Below are positions 10,260-48,110 of a DNA stretch of 64,000 nucleotides, in pieces. Below the pieces are notes generated by a model that did no database searches, was not told the DNA's origin, and saw nothing but the letters and a program-made list of their open reading frames with translations. Position numbers and translations under genes: made by a program. The first letter of the stretch is position 1; every line of letters begins with the position of its first letter. Origin of the DNA: Fidelibacterota bacterium (GTDB taxonomy: Bacteria; Fidelibacterota; UBA8477); contig JAIPJR010000001.1 of the NCBI GenBank assembly GCA_021734045.1, forward strand, positions 5,901 to 69,900, read 5' to 3'.

Positions 10260-10508
10260 ATGAGCGAAAAGAGCACATCTCAAACGTCCCATTGGTTAAG
10301 TGAATTACCGTTTACCAAGGTGAACTATGCCCTTTTTCTGGTGGGGATTTTTGTCATTGCACTTGGGTATATTCTCATGGCCACAGGTGAATTGAATAGT
10401 GTTCAATCGCTATCCCTCTCACCCGTTGTATTGCTGATCGGTTATCTGGTGATTATCCCCGTCGCGATTATGTATCGCGGTAGTGAGAAGAAGAGCGTTA
10501 ACCGCTAG
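10260..10508 (+). CDS. Small two-TM membrane protein, uncharacterised
   Basis: ATG at 10260 (MSEKSTSQTSHWLSELPFTKVNYALFLVGIFVIALGYILMATG…) encodes two hydrophobic helices. The longer ORF-track version begins at a TTG at 10149. No recognisable catalytic motif. Confidence 0.35.
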   Translation: MSEKSTSQTSHWLSELPFTKVNYALFLVGIFVIALGYILMATGELNSVQSLSLSPVVLLIGYLVIIPVAIMYRGSEKKSVNR

Positions 10509-10530
10509 CGCGTTGTGTGAATTGAAAATT

Positions 10531-10605
10531 GGGACCGTAGTTCAGCTTGGTTAGAACGCCAGCCTGTCACGTTGGAGGTCGCGGGTTCGAGCCCCGTCGG
10601 TCCCG
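10531..10605 (+). tRNA. tRNA-Asp (anticodon GUC)
   Basis: Folds by hand into a cloverleaf. The acceptor stem GGGACCG/CGGTCCC, D-arm GTTC…GAAC, anticodon stem CCAGC/GTTGG with loop CTGTCAC (anticodon GTC), and T-arm GCGGG-TTCGAGC-CCCGT all pair. CCA is not encoded. Confidence 0.85.
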
Positions 10606-10614
10606 CTTCAAATG

Positions 10615-10647
10615 AAGAGCCCTGAGTTGATTCAGGGCTCTTTTTTA
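10615..10647 (+). terminator. Rho-independent terminator after tRNA-Asp
   Basis: Hairpin gagccctga-gttgat-tcagggctc followed by TTTTTT. Confidence 0.7.
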
Positions 10648-10818
10648 TGTTAAAATGCTGGAAGAGCGGCCGTTTGCGAGTCACACTTCCCGTGATTTGT
10701 TTTAAATCCTATTTAGCAGAAAACCCGATTGATAGTCGCCGTGGATATCCTTTAAAATACTCACTCTGGAGCGTTGACTCACGTGAGCAGGTCGTCTATA
10801 TTGACCAGCCTATGCGGG

Positions 10819-11844
10819 ATGGAAATGACATTAAGAAGTAAGTTGCTCACAGTTGCCGGAATTACCATCACGCTGGTCTTCACTGCATGGGTTAGTACCT
10901 ATTTAATCCTGAATAATACTTATAACCGCGGTGATAATCATGTGAGGATTGTGATACCTCAGGGGGCCGCGCTGGATCAGATCGCCGATTCCCTTTTTGC
11001 GCATGGTGTTATTTACAATAAAACCAGTTTCAAAATGGCAGCCTGGCTGAGCGGAAAAACCCGTCAATTATTCCCGGGTACCTATTATTTACCCCCGCAT
11101 CTTACCAACAAAGCCTTGTTACGACAATTAACCACAGTTCACCTGCAGGAAGTCACCATCACAATCCCCGAAGGACTACGATCAGATGAGATTATCAGCA
11201 TTCTGTCTAAAAATTTAGACTTGGATTCGATAAAACTGAGTGAGCTCATGTCCGATTTTTCTCTCCTGGCCATCGTGGATCATGGCTTTGTTCATTTGGA
11301 AGGGACGCTTTTCCCGGATACCTATCGTTTTGTTAAAGGCGAATCCGCCCGGGGAATACTTGAACGCTTATTGCGGCATTTCAACAGTCGACTCCTACCA
11401 GAGTGGCAGGCGCGCGCTGCGGAAATGGGCATGACCATTCCCGAAATTATCACTGTTGCTTCTCTAGTGGAAAAGGAGACCGCTAATCCCTCGGAGCGGG
11501 CACTTATTTCCGGTGTGTATCACAATCGGTTAAAAAAGCGAATGCTGCTGAATTGTGACCCCACCCTGATTTATGCCCTGGTTCAGATGGGGGAATGGGA
11601 TGGGAATTTGAAGCTGGAACACAAAGAAATGCGAAATCCTTACAACACCTATCGTTACCGCGGGTTACCACCCACACCCATTGCAAATCCGGGCGCTGCC
11701 AGTATCGAAGCCGCTCTGTATCCTGAGGAAACGCCCTATTTGTATTTTGTGGGAATGAATGACGGATCGGGACGGCATGCCTTTTCCACGACACTTCGTG
11801 AGCATATCAACAAGGTGAATCGCTACCAACGCAGAGGGCGGTAA
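10819..11844 (+). CDS. mltG: Endolytic murein transglycosylase MltG (YceG-like)
   Basis: N-terminal TM anchor (MEMTLRSKLLTVAGITITLVF…) followed by a YceG-like domain (…GTYYLPPHLTNKALL…, …NTYRYRGLPPTPIANPG…). The ATG at 10819 is preferred over the TTG at 10774. Confidence 0.75.
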   Translation: MEMTLRSKLLTVAGITITLVFTAWVSTYLILNNTYNRGDNHVRIVIPQGAALDQIADSLFAHGVIYNKTSFKMAAWLSGKTRQLFPGTYYLPPHLTNKALLRQLTTVHLQEVTITIPEGLRSDEIISILSKNLDLDSIKLSELMSDFSLLAIVDHGFVHLEGTLFPDTYRFVKGESARGILERLLRHFNSRLLPEWQARAAEMGMTIPEIITVASLVEKETANPSERALISGVYHNRLKKRMLLNCDPTLIYALVQMGEWDGNLKLEHKEMRNPYNTYRYRGLPPTPIANPGAASIEAALYPEETPYLYFVGMNDGSGRHAFSTTLREHINKVNRYQRRGR

Positions 11845-39314: not shown

Positions 39315-40328
39315 GTGGTAGATTCAGAAAAGAAGCCGGTACTTCTATCCGGCATCCAGCCCTCCGGTACATTGGCATTAGGCAATTACATTGGAGCCAT
39401 GCGGAATTGGGTGGCTTTGCAGGACAAGTATCAATCCATTTTTCTGGTAGTAGATCTGCACGCCATTACCGTTAGGCAAAAACCAGCGGAATTGCGCCAG
39501 CGGTGCCTTTCTTTCGCTGCCCAGTACCTGGCGGCAGGCATTGATCCGGAAAAAAGTATCGTTGTAATGCAGTCTCATGTCCCGGAACACAGCCAGTTGG
39601 CCTGGGTGCTGAATTGTTATACCTATATGGGTGAATTAAACCGCATGACTCAGTTCAAGGACAAGTCGGCACGGCACACGGATAATGTGAATGCCGGGCT
39701 TTACACCTACCCTGTGCTCATGGCCGCGGACATTCTCCTGTACCAATCCGACTTGGTGCCGGTGGGGGATGACCAGAAACAGCATCTGGAACTAACCCGG
39801 GATATCGCCGAACGTTTTAATCACAGATACAGCCCGACCTTTGTGGTGCCGGAACCCTTCATTCCCAAAGCAGGTGCCCGGATTATGAGTTTGCAGGAGC
39901 CAGAGAAAAAAATGTCAAAATCAGACGATAACACCAATAATTATATTGGCTTACTAGATACACCGGATATGATTGTAAAAAAGGTGAAGCGGGCAGTAAC
40001 TGACAGCCGGACCGATGTTACTTTTGACGCTAAGAACCGGCCGGGTGTGAGTAATCTGTTAAGCATTTACAGTGTTCTCACCGGAAAAGATATGGATGGC
40101 ACGGTGGATAGTTTTAGCGGCAAAGGTTATGCGGAGCTGAAAATGGCGGTAGCTGAGGTTGTGGTGGAGACACTGAAACCCTTTCAGAAGCGGTACAACG
40201 AGGTAATGGAAGATAAAGCGCATCTGGATACTGTTCTCAACCAGGGTGCAGAGCGGGCACGGCGCATTGCCCGCAAAACCCTGAGTAAAGTATATCGGAA
40301 AATTGGGTTCGTTCAGCCCGGTTTGTAA
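39315..40328 (+). CDS. trpS: Tryptophan--tRNA ligase
   Basis: Class I aaRS with HIGH-like (…[17 protein letters not shown]…) and KMSKS (KMSKSD) motifs. 337 aa. Confidence 0.9.
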
Positions 40329-40339
40329 ACGGCGAAACC

Positions 40340-41086
40340 ATGTCTGAATCAAAACTGCTGAATCGGAACTACACGGTGGACCTGCCCATTTTCGAGGGTC
40401 CGCTGGATTTATTACTCTTCCTGATAAAAAAAGACGAACTCAATATCTACGACATTCCCATTTCAAAAATCACCCAGGATTACTTAGCGTACCTTGAGAT
40501 TATAAAGGAGTTGCGCCTTTCCACTGCTGGTGATTTTGTCCTTATGGCTGCCACGCTCATGAAAATCAAAGCCCGTATGCTTCTGCCTGTGCCGGAAGCG
40601 GAGGGTGAGGAGGCGGAGGATCCCCGTAGTGAACTGGTGAATATGCTGCTGGAATATAAACGCTTCAAAGAGGCTGCCGACCATTTTGCTGACCGGGAGC
40701 ATACACAAAACCGGATGTACTACCGGGTCCCATCAACCTCAGAAGGAGAGTTTGAAGTTGGTGCGGAAGATTTGCTGGCGGATGTGAAATTATATGACAT
40801 TATGCTCACTTTTCAGTATCTGTTGCAGAACTATGAGGAACCCCTGAGTCATGAAGTAGCCATGGAAGCGGTTTCTACCTCGGAGCAGGGTGCCTACCTG
40901 AAAATATTACTCAATCAATCAGAAGAGGTCTGGTTCACAGAGATTATGAAGGACCTGGGGTCGCGATTGGTTATCATCGTCACCTTTTTGGCCATACTGG
41001 AACTCATTCGCAGCAGGGAAATTATCATGGAGCAGAACGACCTTTTCAGTGATTTACGCATACGGCGAGGAGAACGCTTTGGATAA
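40340..41086 (+). CDS. scpA: Segregation and condensation protein A
   Basis: ScpA family N-terminus (…VDLPIFEGPLDLLLFLIKKDELNIYDIPISKITQDYLAYL…). 248 aa. Confidence 0.8.
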   Translation: MSESKLLNRNYTVDLPIFEGPLDLLLFLIKKDELNIYDIPISKITQDYLAYLEIIKELRLSTAGDFVLMAATLMKIKARMLLPVPEAEGEEAEDPRSELVNMLLEYKRFKEAADHFADREHTQNRMYYRVPSTSEGEFEVGAEDLLADVKLYDIMLTFQYLLQNYEEPLSHEVAMEAVSTSEQGAYLKILLNQSEEVWFTEIMKDLGSRLVIIVTFLAILELIRSREIIMEQNDLFSDLRIRRGERFG

Positions 41087-41630
41087 GTCTGAATTAATAC
41101 AAATTACAGAAGCGCTGTTAATTGCCACACCAGAACCGTTGACTGAAGCGCGGTTTGCCCAATGTTTCGATTCTACACCGGACATGTCATTAAACGAAAT
41201 TATCGAGTCCTTAAGTGCTTTCTACAAAGAGACCGACCGGGCATTTCAGATTTTCAAAGTCGCTAATGGTTATCAGCTGGTTACACGGAAAGAATTCGAA
41301 CCGTTTGTGAAGCGGCTCTACACTCGATCCGCCCGGCTGCGTCTCTCGCAGGCAGCGCTGGAGACACTGGCCATCATCACCTACCGCCAACCCATCAGCC
41401 GGGTAGAAATTGAAGCGATCCGGGGGGTGAGTTCCGATTCCCCGTTGCGCACGCTTTTAGAGCGACGACTGATAGAGATTCGCGGCCGCGATGAGGGTCC
41501 GGGCCGGGCGCTGCTGTATCGAACGACCACGGAATTTCTCCAGTACTTTGGCCTGAACTCCCTGCAGGATCTGCCCAAGCTGCGGGAAGCGCAGGAATTA
41601 ATTCAGGACGAAGATGAGAGTCTGGTTTAG
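41049..41630 (+). CDS. scpB: Segregation and condensation protein B
   Basis: ScpB winged-helix repeats (…IEAIRGVSSDSPLRTLLERRLIE…). Its start overlaps scpA. The true start may be the in-frame TTG a few codons downstream (MDKSELIQITEALL). Confidence 0.75.
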   Translation: MIYAYGEENALDKSELIQITEALLIATPEPLTEARFAQCFDSTPDMSLNEIIESLSAFYKETDRAFQIFKVANGYQLVTRKEFEPFVKRLYTRSARLRLSQAALETLAIITYRQPISRVEIEAIRGVSSDSPLRTLLERRLIEIRGRDEGPGRALLYRTTTEFLQYFGLNSLQDLPKLREAQELIQDEDESLV

Positions 41631-41659: not shown

Positions 41660-42415
41660 ATGTCTGAGTCAGCCAATTCCGGAGACGCCAAAGCGGGAAT
41701 TCGATTGAATCGTTTCCTTGCCATGGCCGGTATCGGGTCGCGACGGGTTTGTGATGAGTTGATTCAAAAGGGCATGGTTCAAGTTAATGGCGTGATACAG
41801 GTTGAGCCGGCAACGCGTGTCGTGGAAGGGCGGGATCAGGTTGAATTTCAAGGCCGTCCGGTGAATTTGGTTCATGAAACTCATTATTACATCTTTAATA
41901 AGCCACGGGGCGTAATTACCACCACAAGTGATCCCTTTGGCCGGCCCATTGTGGTGGATTTTTTGCCCGGTGATGCACGCATTTACCCGGTGGGACGATT
42001 GGATTTCGACACCACCGGCGCTTTATTGCTCACCAATGATGGGGACGTGGCATATCGGCTCACCCATCCCAAATTTCAGATACCAAAAGTTTACCAGGTT
42101 TTGGTTCGCGGAAACCCGCCGGAAGCGACCCTGCGCCGGGTGGAGGCTGGCATAGAAATTGAAGCCGGGTTTGTTGCCAGAGGTGAAATTAACGGATTTT
42201 GGTACCGGGGTGGCAACACCGAGGTCCGGTTGACGCTACGGGAAGGAAAAAAGCGCGAAGTGAAACGCATCTTTCGTACTCTGGGACATCCGGTTGTGCG
42301 CTTACACAGAGAATCCTTTGCCGCGTTGACGGTGACCGGATTAAAACCCGGTGAATGGCGTGAATTGACGCCAGAGGAAGTACGCGAACTCAAGGAGCTG
42401 GTTCATGGACATTAA
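41660..42415 (+). CDS. rluB: 23S rRNA pseudouridine synthase (RluB/RsuA family) with N-terminal S4 domain
   Basis: S4 RNA-binding region (…LNRFLAMAGIGSRRVCDELIQKGMVQVNG…) and catalytic motif (…YPVGRLDFDTTGALLLTNDG…). Confidence 0.8.
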   Translation: MSESANSGDAKAGIRLNRFLAMAGIGSRRVCDELIQKGMVQVNGVIQVEPATRVVEGRDQVEFQGRPVNLVHETHYYIFNKPRGVITTTSDPFGRPIVVDFLPGDARIYPVGRLDFDTTGALLLTNDGDVAYRLTHPKFQIPKVYQVLVRGNPPEATLRRVEAGIEIEAGFVARGEINGFWYRGGNTEVRLTLREGKKREVKRIFRTLGHPVVRLHRESFAALTVTGLKPGEWRELTPEEVRELKELVHGH

Positions 42416-44114
42416 GGGTAAACGGGTGATGATTTTTGGTGGCTGGGGTTTGGTTGGCCGGGCGGTGGCAAAGCAGGTTTTGCGTGAACAACCAACGGAA
42501 TTAATTCTTACTTCACTCCGGGAAAATGAAGCCCGGGAGATTCAGGAAATCCTGGCAAATCATCCGGTAAACCGGGGGACGCGCATCTCCGTTGTGCATG
42601 GTGATTTATTCGTGCGTAAAGAATTGTCACTGAAATCAAAGGGTGAAATCTACGAAACCGACGATTTGCTCCAGACCATGATCCAGGACCTTTACGATGA
42701 TTTGAGTCCGGATATTATCGAAAATTCCAACCTCTACCAGGTTTTGAATCAGTACAAACCTCAGATACTCATAGATTGTATTAATACCGCTACGGCATTT
42801 GCCTATCAAAATGTTTTTCAGGTCGTGGCGGAAGTACGAGCGGATCTGGCGAAAGCACGGTCGGGAGAGACCGTTAGCGATGATTTTACAAAGAAGGTAG
42901 AGCGACTGGTTTCTACCCTTTACATCCCTCAACTCATCCGGCACGTCCAGATACTGATTGAAGCCATGCGTCAGGCGGAAACAGAATTTTACCTGAAGGT
43001 TGGAACTTCGGGAACCGGCGGTATGGGCTTTAATATTCCCTACACCCACTCGGAGGAAAAGCCTTCTAAAATGCTCATGAGCAAATCGTCTTTGGCTGGT
43101 GCCCATACCATGCTGCTCTGGTTATTGGGGCGGACGCCGCATACACCGATTGTAAAGGAAATCAAACCTACCGCCGCCATCGCATGGAAAAAAATCGGGT
43201 ATGGCAAAGTTGTGAAGCGGGGGCAATTCATTCCAATGTACGATTGTCTGCCTGATTTGGAAACCACGCTGGGGCATGAATTGGTTCGGAATCCTGCACC
43301 TACCTGGCAGCGATTGGAGGAACGTTTTATCGAGTCGGTTTACATTGACGCCGGTGAAAACGGGTATTTCTCCGCTGGTGAGTTTTCAGTCCTTACCGCC
43401 GAAGGTCAGATGGAATTTGTCACACCTGAAGAGATTGCCGATAAGGTATTGATTGAGATTAAAGGCGGTAATACGGGCAATGACATTATCGGCTCGTTGG
43501 ATTCGTCGGTACTGGAACCCTCTTATCGTGCGGGATTAATCCGGAAAAATGCCATCGAACGCATGGGTGATTTGCAGCAGGAAACCGGTTCAGACAGCGT
43601 GGCATTTGAACTCCTGGGACCACCCAGGTTGACCAAACTACTGTATGAAATTTACATGCTGAAGCGGTTGCACGGGGCTGTGAATGCGGTACTGGATACA
43701 CCGGCGTCTGATCTGGCAGCTGCAATGGAAGAGTTAATTCTTTCCGACGATGAATTGCGTGCCACTATTATCTCGGTTGGAACGCCGATTTTGCTGAGTG
43801 ATGGAAAAACCTACCTGCGGGGACCCTCCATTTCGGTGCCGGTTTTCGAAGGGCAGCCGGTTTTGCCGGTAACACCGGAGAATATCGAAAAATGGACCTC
43901 CCAGGGCTGGCTGGATTTACGCGTGTCCAACATGGAATATTGGCAAAAACGCCTCCATTGCCTGTTGGATGATCAGGAATTGGAGCCGGAGGACGATTAT
44001 TCGTCCTACTACTATCGTAACCGACGATTTTTGGATGCGAAAGAGCGCATGGACATTGGTGCAATTGTGAATTGGATCATGGAGTATGAGGATAAAGGTT
44101 ATCGCATTAAATAG
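42405..44114 (+). CDS. Uncharacterised 569-aa protein with N-terminal NAD(P)-binding Rossmann-like motif
   Basis: The N-terminus KRVMIFGGWGLVGRAVAKQV resembles a GxGxxG dinucleotide-binding fold. The remainder (…VGTSGTGGMGFNIPYTHSEEKP… and a long C-terminal region) carries no motif I can confidently assign. Overlaps the rluB stop by 11 nt. Confidence 0.5.
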   Translation: MDIKGKRVMIFGGWGLVGRAVAKQVLREQPTELILTSLRENEAREIQEILANHPVNRGTRISVVHGDLFVRKELSLKSKGEIYETDDLLQTMIQDLYDDLSPDIIENSNLYQVLNQYKPQILIDCINTATAFAYQNVFQVVAEVRADLAKARSGETVSDDFTKKVERLVSTLYIPQLIRHVQILIEAMRQAETEFYLKVGTSGTGGMGFNIPYTHSEEKPSKMLMSKSSLAGAHTMLLWLLGRTPHTPIVKEIKPTAAIAWKKIGYGKVVKRGQFIPMYDCLPDLETTLGHELVRNPAPTWQRLEERFIESVYIDAGENGYFSAGEFSVLTAEGQMEFVTPEEIADKVLIEIKGGNTGNDIIGSLDSSVLEPSYRAGLIRKNAIERMGDLQQETGSDSVAFELLGPPRLTKLLYEIYMLKRLHGAVNAVLDTPASDLAAAMEELILSDDELRATIISVGTPILLSDGKTYLRGPSISVPVFEGQPVLPVTPENIEKWTSQGWLDLRVSNMEYWQKRLHCLLDDQELEPEDDYSSYYYRNRRFLDAKERMDIGAIVNWIMEYEDKGYRIK

Positions 44115-44143: not shown

Positions 44144-44311
44144 ATGGCATTATACGGTCGCAATTATTTTGGTCTCTGGCTCATCATGGGGATGATGATT
44201 GGTTTTTTTGTGGGCACCGGTTTTCAGTCGCCGGAAGTGGGGGTGGTTGCCGGGGGCGGCTTGGGACTACTCTACGCATGGCTGAAGAGCCGAAAGCATT
44301 CGGGTGAATAA
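44144..44311 (+). CDS. Small (55 aa) hydrophobic protein, uncharacterised (below the ORF-track cut-off)
   Basis: ATG at 44144 encodes MALYGRNYFGLWLIMGMMIGFFVGTGFQSPEVGVVAGGGLGLLYAWLKSRKHSGE with one or two TM helices, in the intergenic region after the 569-aa gene. Coding status uncertain. Confidence 0.3.
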   Translation: MALYGRNYFGLWLIMGMMIGFFVGTGFQSPEVGVVAGGGLGLLYAWLKSRKHSGE

Positions 44312-44384
44312 ATCCCTACCAAGCCCATCCCGGCGTATTACTTTCCCCTGAACATCATCAACATACAGGGTGTGGAGGAGATAA

Positions 44385-44603
44385 ATGGCTCGATTATTAA
44401 CAACGAGAAATGCCTTGTGGATTACATTGGCAACGGGTGTAGGTGCTGTACTGCAATTCTATGCGCTCCTGCGCTATGTGGACCGTCTCCCCGGTGATAC
44501 GGTTGGCATCATTATTTATGCAATCACCTGTCTTTGTTTTCTCATTCTGGCGGGTGTTTGTTTTCGGATTTGGCGACGGTTGGCGACTGAAAACAACGCG
44601 TGA
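44385..44603 (+). CDS. Small (72 aa) two-TM protein, uncharacterised
   Basis: MARLLTTRNALWITLATGVGAVLQFYALL…IIIYAITCLCFLILAGVCF… carries two hydrophobic helices. No homology assignable by eye. Confidence 0.3.
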   Translation: MARLLTTRNALWITLATGVGAVLQFYALLRYVDRLPGDTVGIIIYAITCLCFLILAGVCFRIWRRLATENNA

Positions 44604-44740: not shown

Positions 44741-47700
44741 ATGATTATCGCCATTGATGGTCCGGCGGCATCCGGAAAATCCAGTACTGCAGCGCGTGTT
44801 GCGGCGAAATTGGGGTTCCGGCATATTGATACCGGTGCCATGTACCGGGCTGTGACCTTGTACATGTTGGATCATGGTGTAGATATTTCGGACACAGAAT
44901 CCGTTCTGAACGTACTGCCGGATGTGGATGTGTCGCTTGAATTTAAAGGTGATAATCAACATGTGATTCTAGCGGGTGTGGATGTGAGTGATCGCATCCG
45001 AACGCCGGCTGTGAATGAGCATGTGAGCCAGGTTAGCGCAATACCGGCCGTACGCCAGCGTCTCGTAGAACTCCAGCGCCAAGCTGCCAATGACTACGAT
45101 GTGGTATTGGAAGGACGCGACATCGGAACAGTCGTATTTCCCAATGCCGAATTGAAAATTTTTATGATTGCCGATGTCCATGTCCGGGCACAACGGCGCC
45201 AGCAGGAGTTGGCGAGCCTGGGCATTCAGCAAGACCTGGCTGAATTGGAAAAAGATCTGATAGCGCGTGACAAAATCGATTCATCGCGAGAATTGTCACC
45301 ATTGAAACCCGCTACTGATGCAGTCGAGCTGGATACATCCAAGCTTACCATCGACCAGCAGGTAGCATTCATCGTTAACCAAGCCAAGCAACTGATTGCA
45401 GAGGAGGAAAGACCCTTCATGGCAGAAGAAGAAAAAAAGGATGCACCGCAGACTGAAGACCAGTCCCAGGAGACATCCGAAACCACCTCAGACGCCGTCG
45501 AGATGACGCCCGCCGAGGAAACCCAGGACAAAAAAGAAGAGACCATCGCGTCTGAACCTGAACCCGAAACCAAAACCGAGACCGAAGCTGAATCCAAAAC
45601 TGAAGCCGAAGCCGAAGCCGAAGCCGAAGCCGAAGCCGCAGAAACTGACGCTAACACCGCATCTGCTAAAGATGAGGGTGACGAAGTCAGTTCTGAGGTA
45701 GCACAAAAAACTGATGCTGAAATGACGCCTGAACAAGCCCCGGATACAGAAGCACCGGTCGAGGAAAGTGCGGAATCATCTGACAAAGATGAACCGGCCA
45801 AAAGCACTCGGAAAACCGTCAAGGTGAAAGCCAAAACTTCTGGTGAGCCACCGGTTCAACCGGTTGTTGATGCGGAAGAAGCTGAAAAAGCTTCGAAAAA
45901 GATTGCCGGACTGGATAAACGGTCCGCCATGAATGACATCTTCAACCAGATCAAGACAGTGAAGCCGGATCAGCTTGCTGAAACCATTGCTGAAGAATCC
46001 GAGGAAGTGAAAGACCTTTCCTTCCTGCTGGATCGTACTATCGCAGACATTACGCCGCGTACCCTGGTGGAAGGGCGTGTCATTTCTGTGGGCGATCGTG
46101 AAGTACTGGTGGACATCGGTTTCAAATCCGAAGGGCTGGTTTCCCGGGATGAATTCAAGGATGACGAATTGCCCAAGGTGGGTGATAAAATCGAATTATT
46201 CCTGGATACACTGGAAGATGATCAGGGTCAGACAATTCTGTCCAAACGCAAAGCAGATTTCATGCGTGTCTGGACCGCGATAAAAGATGTTTCCGACAAT
46301 GACGACCTCATCAATGGCACCATTACTCGCCGGATTAAAGGTGGTATGGTGGTGAATGTGATGGGTATTGATGCCTTCCTGCCCGGATCGCAACTGGATG
46401 TGCGCCCCATCCATGATTTTGACGCATATATCGGAAAGTCCTACGACTTCAAGATCGTCAAACTCAATGAAACCCGGAAGAATATCGTACTCTCACGGAA
46501 AGACCTGCTGGAGGAAAAACTCCAGAAACAGCGGGCTGAACTGTTGAAGAATATCGAGATTGGCCAGGTACTGGAAGGCCGGGTAAAAAATATCACCGAT
46601 TTTGGCGTATTCGTCGACTTGGGTGGTGTTGATGGTCTGTTGCATATCACCGATTTGTCCTGGGGACGGGTTAACCATCCCTCTGAAGTTGTGGATATGG
46701 ACGATGAAATTACCGTAAAGGTGATTGATTACGATGAAGAAAAACAGCGTGTCTCGCTGGGATTCAAACAGTTACAGCCACACCCGTGGGAACATGTGGA
46801 ACAGAAATATCCTGTGGGTTCTGCTGTTAAAGGCAAAGTGGTCAGCATCACCAATTACGGTATTTTTGTGGAATTGGAAGAGGGTGTTGAAGGTCTGGTA
46901 CATATCTCAGAAATTTCCTGGACCCAACACATCAAGCATCCATCGGAAATTTATTCGGTTGGTGACGAAATTGAGACCGTCGTGCTTTCAATCGCACCGG
47001 ATGATCGTAAAATCAGCCTGGGCGTGAAGCAACTGAAACCGGATCCCTGGACCCTGATTGAGGATACCTACATCGTGGGTACACTCCACACAGGTACGGT
47101 TAAGAACCTGACCCAGTTCGGCGCATTTGTTGAATTGGAAGAGGGTATCGAAGGCCTGATCCACATCTCAGATCTCTCATGGACGCGCAAAGTCCGTCAT
47201 CCGAAAGAGGTACTGAAACGCGGAGACGAAGTGGAAGTCCGCATTCTCGACATTGCTCAGGACCAGCGGAAAATCTCGCTTGGGCTCAAGCAGGCCGAGG
47301 AGGATCCATGGCCGCAGATTGAACAGGAATTTGCCGTGAACAGCACCCGTAAGGGTAAAGTCATCAAATTGCTGGACAAAGGCATCATCCTGGAGCTGGA
47401 AGGGACCGATGTTGAAGGTCTGATTCCCCTGGCTGCGTTCAACAAGAAAGACCGGAAGACGATTCTGGATAAGTTCGAGGTAGATCAGGAAGTAGAAGTC
47501 AAGGTGATCGAGATTGATCCCAATGACAAGAAAATCCTGGTCAGCCATGAAGCCGCCATCAAAGATAAAGAACGGGCGGTTGTGGACGAATATCTGCGCG
47601 GTCAGAAGCAGGACGGCAATAAGCTTGACATTCCCGATGAAATCGTGGCCAAAATCAAGGAAGCTGCCGAGGAAGAAACCGAGAAAAAGGTTGCTGCTGC

Positions 47701-48055
47701 TGCCAAGCGGAAAGCCGCTAAAGCAAAAGAAGAAGAAAAAGCACAGAAAAAAGCGGATGCGGAAGATGCTGCGGAATCAGAAGCTGAAGAGAAGCCTGCA
47801 TCCAAAACCAAAACCAAATCCAAATCCAAATCGAAATCGAAAGCAAAATCCGAAGATACGGAAGATGCTGCCGATGCCGATGCCGATGCCGATGAGGATG
47901 CTATTGAAACGGAAGCCACTGGAGAGAAAGAGCAATCTGACTCTGATGTGGAAAACGATGAAAAACCAGCGGACGAATCCGAATCTCCTGATGACGATTC
48001 AACAAAACCCGCTGATGATGCGAACGATGAGGAAGAATCCAAAGACGATAAGTAA
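44741..48055 (+). CDS. Cytidylate kinase - 30S ribosomal protein S1 fusion (Cmk-RpsA), with long low-complexity acidic linker and K/A/E/D-rich C-terminal tail
   Basis: N-terminus MIIAIDGPAASGKSSTAARVA…RDIGTVVFP is Cmk. About 180 aa of E/T/A/S/D-rich linker follow, including an (EA)n run. Then come six S1 repeats (…GRVISVGDREVLVDIGFKSEGLV…, …GQVLEGRVKNITDFGVFVDLGG…, …GSAVKGKVVSITNYGIFVELEEG…, …GTLHTGTVKNLTQFGAFVELEEG…, …RKGKVIKLLDKGIILELEG…). The sequence ends in KTKTKSKSKSKSKAKS and DADADADE runs. Confidence 0.85.
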   Translation: MIIAIDGPAASGKSSTAARVAAKLGFRHIDTGAMYRAVTLYMLDHGVDISDTESVLNVLPDVDVSLEFKGDNQHVILAGVDVSDRIRTPAVNEHVSQVSAIPAVRQRLVELQRQAANDYDVVLEGRDIGTVVFPNAELKIFMIADVHVRAQRRQQELASLGIQQDLAELEKDLIARDKIDSSRELSPLKPATDAVELDTSKLTIDQQVAFIVNQAKQLIAEEERPFMAEEEKKDAPQTEDQSQETSETTSDAVEMTPAEETQDKKEETIASEPEPETKTETEAESKTEAEAEAEAEAEAAETDANTASAKDEGDEVSSEVAQKTDAEMTPEQAPDTEAPVEESAESSDKDEPAKSTRKTVKVKAKTSGEPPVQPVVDAEEAEKASKKIAGLDKRSAMNDIFNQIKTVKPDQLAETIAEESEEVKDLSFLLDRTIADITPRTLVEGRVISVGDREVLVDIGFKSEGLVSRDEFKDDELPKVGDKIELFLDTLEDDQGQTILSKRKADFMRVWTAIKDVSDNDDLINGTITRRIKGGMVVNVMGIDAFLPGSQLDVRPIHDFDAYIGKSYDFKIVKLNETRKNIVLSRKDLLEEKLQKQRAELLKNIEIGQVLEGRVKNITDFGVFVDLGGVDGLLHITDLSWGRVNHPSEVVDMDDEITVKVIDYDEEKQRVSLGFKQLQPHPWEHVEQKYPVGSAVKGKVVSITNYGIFVELEEGVEGLVHISEISWTQHIKHPSEIYSVGDEIETVVLSIAPDDRKISLGVKQLKPDPWTLIEDTYIVGTLHTGTVKNLTQFGAFVELEEGIEGLIHISDLSWTRKVRHPKEVLKRGDEVEVRILDIAQDQRKISLGLKQAEEDPWPQIEQEFAVNSTRKGKVIKLLDKGIILELEGTDVEGLIPLAAFNKKDRKTILDKFEVDQEVEVKVIEIDPNDKKILVSHEAAIKDKERAVVDEYLRGQKQDGNKLDIPDEIVAKIKEAAEEETEKKVAAAAKRKAAKAKEEEKAQKKADAEDAAESEAEEKPASKTKTKSKSKSKSKAKSEDTEDAADADADADEDAIETEATGEKEQSDSDVENDEKPADESESPDDDSTKPADDANDEEESKDDK
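45602..45637 (+). repeat. (GAAGCC)5 hexanucleotide microsatellite inside cmk-rpsA (encodes EAEAEAEAEA)
   Basis: Five perfect tandem GAAGCC units, flanked by degenerate copies (gaagct, gaatcc, aaaact). Confidence 0.8.
47804..47902 (+). repeat. Tandem hexanucleotide repeats (AAAWCS)8 and (GATGCC)3-5 near the 3' end of cmk-rpsA
   Basis: aaaacc aaaacc aaatcc aaatcc aaatcg aaatcg aaagca aaatcc (47804-47851) encodes KTKTKSKSKSKSKAKS. gatgcc x3 with flanking gatgct and gatgag (47864-47902) encodes DADADADEDA. Confidence 0.8.
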
Positions 48056-48079
48056 CGGATTTTTCCTGTTTATATCTGA

Positions 48080-48110
48080 AAAGCCCTGTTTCGACAGGGC
48101 TTTTCTTTAT
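48080..48110 (+). terminator. Rho-independent terminator after cmk-rpsA
   Basis: Hairpin aaagccctgt-ttcg-acagggcttt followed by TCTTTATT. Located 25 nt after the stop codon. Confidence 0.7.

Follow-up and report, generated by a model that had tools for sequence, protein, structure and literature searches.

A two-domain Ind2-family (PF27054) protein encoded behind a pseudouridine synthase gene: a candidate 2-oxo acid reductase outside the Ind2 ortholog clade

The window analysed here is a 64-kb stretch of DNA, in which a block of same-strand genes includes an ORF of 569 aa with an ATG start (ORF X, 42405..44114, +). Position, strand and length are as given by a first-pass annotation of the same DNA. 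The features of the locus, in window coordinates, are as follows.

39315..41630, + strand: trpS, scpA and scpB, the upstream genes of one same-strand block
41660..42415, + strand: RsuA/RluB-family pseudouridine synthase, whose stop overlaps the ORF X start
42392..42397, + strand: Shine-Dalgarno sequence AAGGAG (read from the sequence), 7 nt 5' of the ORF X ATG
42405..44114, + strand: ORF X, putative two-domain oxidoreductase of the Ind2 family (PF27054), clade A (from homology and a tree)
42405..43151, + strand: SDR-type Rossmann domain of ORF X (residues 1-249)
42438..42458, + strand: glycine motif G12-G13-W-G15-L-V-G18, predicted from conservation to bind a dinucleotide
42990..43064, + strand: family signature Y196-LKVGTSGTGGMGFNIPYTHSEEKP-220, which follows strand β5; T201, T214 and H215 are putatively catalytic
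43083..43085, + strand: K227, in the helix that follows the loop; putative SDR catalytic Lys position, from topology
43152..44111, + strand: C-terminal domain (residues 250-569, the PF27054 region), a β-hairpin subdomain and a helical bundle
44144..44603, + strand: two small hydrophobic ORFs, lineage-specific
44741..48055, + strand: cmk-rpsA fusion ORF, at the 3' end of the gene block
48078..48105, + strand: terminator-like hairpin (12-bp stem and T-run), the probable operon end

The pseudouridine synthase ORF ends in ...ELVHGH, and its TAA stop at 42413-42415 lies past the ORF X ATG, giving the 11-nt overlap that had been reported; the Shine-Dalgarno sequence of ORF X is a perfect AAGGAG within the 3' end of the synthase gene. 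Among the other neighbours, trpS (TIGR00233, 389 bits) and scpB (TIGR00281, 138.5 bits) scored over their cut-offs, and scpA had clear matches, though under its cut-off. The synthase belongs to the RsuA/RluB/RluF group (TIGR00093, 145.8 bits, over the model cut-off). Its earlier name, rluB, stands at the level of this family and rests on synteny (its place after scpA and scpB), because its 121 bits fall short of the 290 required by the RluB equivalog model. Both tiny hydrophobic ORFs described 3' of ORF X are present (44144..44311, 55 aa; 44385..44603, 72 aa). The block from trpS to rpsA is probably a single transcription unit, since the + strand has just one strong terminator-like hairpin, directly after rpsA.

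A database search with ORF X returned ~8000 homologs, most of them 565-575 aa long, from Marinimicrobia, KSB1, Calditrichota and related MAGs. An exhaustive HMMER search recovered 780 clusters (50% identity) at E≤1e-3, including 234 at E≤1e-30, and a scan of reference genomes placed homologs in at least 562 species. An alignment of 45 sequences contained almost no indels and had ~130 invariant columns. Because its homologs are this numerous, are mostly full-length and align nearly without indels over 49-93% identity, ORF X is a genuine gene. Public records name these homologs "short-chain dehydrogenase", "polysaccharide biosynthesis protein" or "hypothetical protein", none of which is informative.

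Pfam, NCBIfam and PDB sequence searches were done twice, with the single protein and then with a family profile, and had the same outcome: only the first ~70 residues of ORF X matched, weakly, to SDR-type NAD-binding families (Polysacc_synt_2, KR, UDP-GlcNAc 4,6-dehydratase). Past residue ~70 there was no match in these three libraries, the Pfam copy searched being one without PF27054. Precomputed Pfam tags do assign PF27054 to homologs, including a protein identical to ORF X (P0001). Gene tables name this entry "Beta_methylindole_red_C"; a literature search for "PF27054" or for "beta-methylindole" with "reductase" found no papers.

Some NCBI labels ("polysaccharide biosynthesis protein") would make ORF X a nucleotide-sugar-modifying extended SDR, i.e., a 4,6-dehydratase or epimerase like CapD, PglF or FlaA1 acting in polysaccharide biosynthesis. 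We consider this unlikely. The matches behind such labels span residues 1-70 only, which is the generic NAD-binding β-α-β unit, and Polysacc_synt_2 itself (PF02719) was rejected, as it fell under its gathering score (20.1 vs 20.2 bits) and matched at profile positions 1-63 of 293 only. The last 320 aa of ORF X show no relationship to the substrate domain of extended SDRs, no glycosyltransferase or sugar-nucleotide gene recurred as a neighbour in ~215 loci, and the sole characterised full-length homolog uses a 2-oxo acid (see below). The first-pass annotation had also mentioned saccharopine dehydrogenase-like proteins as a possible identity. ORF X had zero match to these, and the weak matches of 3/37 Ind2-family members (best E=0.0025) covered the NAD-binding part only.

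The characterised homolog emerged from the most divergent representatives of the family, which are actinobacterial. Genomic context was inspected in Streptomyces sp. NRRL F-5135, Micromonospora okii and Aestuariibius sp. (L090-L092), and in 3/3 the PF27054 gene lies in the same type of cluster: genes for TrpRS, a methyltransferase, the PF27054 protein, an AMP-binding-like protein and a PLP-dependent enzyme, then for a 2-Hacid_dh-family enzyme, a protein of ~215-230 aa, a methyltransferase and an aminotransferase. This order agrees gene for gene with the published indolmycin pathway, which comprises the C-methyltransferase Ind1, the NADH-dependent ketone reductase Ind2, Ind3, the PLP enzyme Ind4, the imine reductase Ind5, Ind6 and the N-methyltransferase Ind7 (PMC8246080; PMC5925218). 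In it, Ind2 converts 3-methylindolepyruvate to indolmycenic acid in an NADH-dependent reaction (PMC8246080; PMC5925218). Aestuariibius is an alphaproteobacterium, in which an indolmycin-type cluster was unexpected.

ORF X aligned with the Streptomyces protein in the Ind2 position over 541 residues (31% identity, E=4e-68) and is hence a true full-length homolog of a characterised reductase. Its identity to Ind2 orthologs in general is 25-31%, and the two-domain architecture is kept down to 25%. Like Ind2 of Streptomyces griseus, the namesake of PF27054 (two domains, 545-570 aa), ORF X has a Rossmann domain and a PF27054 C-terminal domain and is alignable from end to end; the two proteins have in common the glycine-rich loop, the T-H pair, the K and charged residues of the C-terminal domain, and presumably share the chemistry of cofactor-dependent carbonyl reduction. 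The Ind2 family, and with it the family of ORF X, is thus already catalogued and not new. The earlier description of ORF X as a candidate new enzyme family, with segments that could not be placed in any familiar one, was too strong in view of PF27054 and Ind2, although it holds for the library searches past ~70 aa. Likewise, the alignment to Ind2 comes close to a full-length match to a characterised family, albeit one in which a single member has been characterised and no structure solved.

Full-length representatives (97) were placed in a neighbour-joining tree, which divides the Ind2 family at its root into clades A and B. Clade A holds ORF X, all FCB-group genes and ~60 other representatives, and cluster look-ups add Chloroflexota (Ktedonobacterales), Acidobacteriota and Syntrophorhabdaceae MAGs. 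Within clade B, a single sub-branch holds the Ind2 orthologs, among them the PF27054 proteins of the three ind clusters, and the remaining members occur in unrelated contexts; ORF X is therefore outside the Ind2 ortholog clade. The clades also differ in motif (clade A, VGT-S/T-G-T-GGMG...TH-S/G-E; clade B, VST-T-G-L-GGMG...THGD plus a three-residue insertion): ORF X has GTGGMG where Ind2 has GLGGMG, has G200 in place of Ser, and is without the three residues inserted in Ind2 after THG-D/E. Nonetheless, 31 positions are ≥90% conserved in both clades (G13, G15, G18, G66, P119, D124, T201, G203, G205-G208, T214, H215, K227, L237, P255, G317, T340, E342, E343, G354, R380, G405, P407, K411, L413, E415, D504, R506 and W513), whereas three switch cleanly between them and ten are conserved in clade A only. 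Every family residue tested is kept in ORF X, both in the Rossmann domain (G13/G15/G18, D124, T201, G203, G205-208, T214, H215 and K227) and in the C-terminal domain (R380, K411, E415, D504, R506 and W513). Clade A has no characterised member, and this much of the claim to novelty stands, together with a C-terminal domain that has no relative in the PDB. Given a split from Ind2 at the root, substrate and even reaction type in clade A may differ.

To place ORF X among its neighbours, the genes of the window were used as probes in 89 loci, neighbours were clustered de novo in 65 Ignavibacteriota-type and 80 non-FCB metagenome loci, and same-strand adjacent partners were analysed in 134 loci. The order scpA-scpB-pseudouridine synthase-X-cmk(-rpsA) is kept in Marinimicrobia, KSB1, Calditrichota and a few MAGs labelled Gemmatimonadota or Caldisericaceae, where the synthase gene adjoins or overlaps X and the block is often preceded by trpS. 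By contrast, the window neighbours were absent both from the flanks (≤8 kb each side) of all 65 Ignavibacteriota/Kryptoniota-type loci and from all 80 non-FCB clade A loci. In the former, X has varying housekeeping neighbours that by sequence resemble HisRS, PtsN, TrmH and Lgt, along with YbjQ, an aldehyde dehydrogenase and an ABC permease; in the latter, the commonest neighbour cluster was a thiolase (8/80). Hence, the coupling to rluB is not a family-wide functional association but looks like gene order passed down within one section of the FCB group, which corrects an over-reading of the overlap. The small hydrophobic ORFs, suggested along with rluB as neighbours to check for conservation, are more restricted still: they were found only at L001, L006 and L007, where X is 82-100% identical, and were absent from relatives in which its identity is ≤72%.

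The same data bear on a role alongside the synthase or the translation apparatus, e.g., as an RNA-modifying or RNA-associated oxidoreductase. Such a role would account for the coupling to rluB and the place between scpAB/rluB and cmk-rpsA, for the overlapping or abutting starts of X in Marinimicrobia, Calditrichota and KSB1, and for a trpS-to-rpsA block whose genes share a strand and one strong terminator. It is nonetheless highly improbable, given that the linkage is missing in the 65 Ignavibacteriota-type and 80/80 non-FCB clade A loci, that the C-terminal domain of ORF X is acidic (pI 4.7; family median 5.5), unlike typical RNA-binding domains, and that the characterised homolog is a small-molecule reductase.

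Among same-strand adjacent genes, no cluster occurred in more than 6 of the 134 loci, and no conserved pathway partner of the family was found in ~215 loci. Thin recurrences (the thiolase above; 6/134 loci for an S46-type peptidase; and 2-5 loci for each of four others, a DUF711-like protein, YbjQ, an aminotransferase and a fused 2-oxoacid dehydrogenase E1) were too weak and too phylogenetically non-independent to be taken as partners. Two apparent fusions were set aside as well: P0145 (924 aa, with a 3-hydroxyacyl-CoA dehydrogenase [3HCDH] domain), a possible Rosetta-stone protein, is a singleton on one contig, and P0234, with a PPIase, matches the Ind2 family over its first 266 residues only, i.e., over a truncated N-terminal half.

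TrpRS genes lie near PF27054 genes in the ind clusters, in the FCB operon (2-4 kb upstream of X) and near one clade B member (L094), as would be expected if ORF X were an Ind2 ortholog and a marker of a tryptophan-derived antibiotic pathway resembling that of indolmycin, with trpS as its resistance gene. Context and phylogeny effectively refute this. Where ind2 sits in a biosynthetic cluster beside a C-methyltransferase gene, ORF X is part of a housekeeping operon or, elsewhere, a stand-alone gene; its neighbours are trpS, scpA, scpB, the pseudouridine synthase gene and cmk-rpsA, with none of ind1 or ind3-ind8 at the locus and no homologs of ind1, ind3, ind4, ind5, ind6 or ind7 near X. It also falls in the opposite deep clade. 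The trpS of the window is a standard housekeeping TIGR00233 enzyme heading the scpAB operon, and the TrpRS linkage was rejected in general, as no TrpRS gene was present in the flanks (≤8 kb each side) of ~145 other loci (0/65 Ignavibacteriota-type, 0/80 non-FCB).

The full-length AlphaFold2 model of ORF X (pLDDT 83, pTM 0.80) is confident except in the motif loop (residues 203-219, pLDDT below 50). Its N-terminal domain runs β1-αA-β2-αB-β3, an inserted helical segment, β4, helices, β5, a loop, a helix and β6, and is an SDR fold. ORF X combines this Rossmann fold with the N-terminal glycine-rich motif of SDRs, and the dinucleotide-binding sequence VMIFGGWGLVGRAVAKQV singled out in the first-pass annotation corresponds to residues 8-25. 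G13, G15 and G18 are ≥90% conserved in clades A and B, and A2 shows no variation at G12, G15 or G18. Conservation within the Ind2 family peaks at the motif VGTSGTGGMGFNIPYTHSEEKP (residues 199-220 of ORF X); in the model, T201 lies directly past β5 and K227 on the next helix. Solved SDRs (MalC 6nkh, Gre2 4pvc, AerF 6jh7, PglF 5bju and CapD 6bwc) are 10-16% identical to ORF X, which differs from classical and extended SDRs in a helical insertion of ~50 residues between β3 and β4, in a 17-residue glycine-rich loop in the active-site region and in its lack of the YxxxK Tyr. With 569 aa, it is also far longer than classical (~250 aa) or extended (~350 aa) SDRs and, unlike any solved SDR, has an additional C-terminal domain of 320 residues, for which no structural relative was found in the PDB. 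When the family profile was compared with an RmlD-type extended SDR by hhalign, only the β4 segment aligned (probability 11%) and the triad was not resolved.

The position of the YxxxK Tyr, four before K227, is Met223 in ORF X; across the Ind2 family it is variable and never Tyr, and every member, even Ind2, therefore lacks the canonical YxxxK. A role as an "atypical SDR" without catalysis, sensing NAD(P)(H) or redox state in the way of NmrA/HSCARG, would fit both this absence and a gene that usually stands alone with variable neighbours. It is very unlikely, in that Ind2 is catalytically active (PMC8246080) with the same Tyr-less site and equivalents of T201, H215 and K227, and that the extreme conservation of the glycine-rich loop and the charged C-terminal residues is more enzyme-like.

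On balance, ORF X is best read as an NAD(P)H-dependent two-domain oxidoreductase of the Ind2 family, most likely a 2-oxo acid reductase, a reading by analogy to which we assign a probability of roughly 0.5. The protein would be soluble and cytosolic. Its N-terminal ~250 residues, a divergent extended-SDR-like Rossmann domain, would hold the nicotinamide cofactor via G12-G13-x-G15-x-x-G18, and the loop T201-S-G-T-G-G-M-G...Y-T214-H215 together with K227 would stand where SDRs have their catalytic Ser-Tyr-Lys. Because the canonical SDR Tyr is absent, H215 (or Y213) is the putative proton donor; this T201/H215/K227 site is predicted from topology alone. The acidic C-terminal domain, in which E342, E343, R380, K411, E415, D504, R506 and W513 are conserved family-wide, would probably close over the active site and bind the substrate. 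A carbonyl group would then be reduced, most probably that of a 2-oxo acid to give a 2-hydroxy acid; reaction type and substrate class are most likely those suggested by Ind2, the sole characterised family member.

The substrate itself is unlikely to be 3-methylindolepyruvate, because ORF X belongs to the other deep clade, has different residues and lies in a non-biosynthetic gene setting. Clade A appears to act as a single-copy, constitutively co-transcribed housekeeping gene, and its substrate is therefore probably a primary metabolite, by analogy a 2-oxo acid or related carbonyl compound. One candidate role is suggested by chuangxinmycin biosynthesis, where the PanE homolog CxnC is the proposed functional equivalent of Ind2 (PMC5925218). 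Like Ind2, CxnC and PanE-type ketopantoate reductases are proposed to convert β-branched 2-oxo acids to 2-hydroxy acids with NAD(P)H; they are of an unrelated fold and family, with zero sequence similarity to ORF X, and would be functional analogues only. Since Ind2's proposed analogue is a PanE homolog (PMC5925218), and since ketopantoate and 3-methylindolepyruvate are both β-branched 2-oxo acids, clade A might replace ketopantoate reductase. More broadly, clade A could be a missing housekeeping enzyme of the FCB group, Chloroflexota and Acidobacteriota, i.e., a non-orthologous core 2-oxoacid reductase with a substrate domain of a fold unseen in solved structures, but we regard this extension as speculative and improbable.

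Besides correcting the reading of a brand-new family, the Ind2 link suggests a concrete chemistry, NAD(P)H-dependent 2-oxo acid reduction, for a family of thousands of sequences whose one characterised member belongs to the other clade and which several largely uncultured phyla keep as they would a core gene. The C-terminal domain of ORF X is a reasonable target for structure determination.

The scpA and scpB ORFs listed by a mechanical ORF finder share 38 nt (41049..41086), whereas gene calling of the identical contig L001 places the scpB start 30 nt further downstream, leaving an 8-nt overlap with scpA. Under either scpB start, all genes from trpS to rpsA are tightly packed on one strand, and a single strong terminator lies at 48078-48105. 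The ScpB homolog of a KSB1 bacterium (L002 5012-7174) is a long form carrying an extension, at 720 aa versus 183-226 aa in Marinimicrobia and Calditrichota. Features of this block discussed here are as follows.

Features of the trpS-to-rpsA block (window coordinates)
40340..41630, +, scpA and scpB (mechanical ORF finder)
44144..44311, +, small hydrophobic ORF, 55 aa, between X and cmk-rpsA
44385..44603, +, small hydrophobic ORF, 72 aa, between X and cmk-rpsA
44741..48055, +, cmk-rpsA fusion ORF, 1104 aa, cytidylate kinase and ribosomal protein S1 in a single ORF

The first-pass annotation had described two tiny hydrophobic ORFs following X, the 569-aa Ind2-family oxidoreductase gene, and both are present. 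Their suggested role as conserved neighbors of X did not hold beyond the closest relatives (L001, L006, and L007), where alone they are conserved at the protein level. In the Marinimicrobia whose X is 72% identical, the gap between X and cmk-rpsA is just ~137 nt, with no ORF called there. The two ORFs are likely real, lineage-specific small membrane proteins.

Downstream, the fusion ORF consists of a cmk part (residues 1-214) and an rpsA part (residues 408-971), separated by an acidic low-complexity linker of ~190 aa (EAEAEA...), and ends in a KSKSKS/acidic tail. The fusion was also found in further Marinimicrobia (L004/L005, 1029 aa), whereas cmk and rpsA are separate genes in KSB1 and Calditrichota. 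The L001 MAG (GCA_021734565.1) is named "Lentisphaeria bacterium" at NCBI; however, its X protein, operon order, and cmk-rpsA fusion are closest to those of Marinimicrobia (72% identity, identical synteny), and the label may therefore be wrong.

Elsewhere in the family, complete indolmycin-like clusters (ind0-ind8) were found in Streptomyces sp. NRRL F-5135 (L090), Micromonospora okii (L091), and the alphaproteobacterial Aestuariibius sp. (Rhodobacteraceae; L092), none of which is mentioned as a producer in the indolmycin literature cited. In the Aestuariibius cluster, an inserted LuxR-type regulator (Autoind_bind and GerE) separates the TrpRS gene from the methyltransferase, and there are transposase and integrase genes nearby. 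A metagenomic clade B member (L094, 5652-7376) is followed, 3 kb further on, by a class-I synthetase gene of TrpRS size (10373-11374), and no other ind genes accompany the two. This proximity is probably coincidental, because association of family members with TrpRS was not general in about 145 other loci. Finally, a 336-aa JGI metagenome protein (P0284) carries an HPt phosphotransfer domain and is partially similar to clade B members (49% of the query aligned, at 39% identity), which may reflect domain recombination or a gene-calling artefact.
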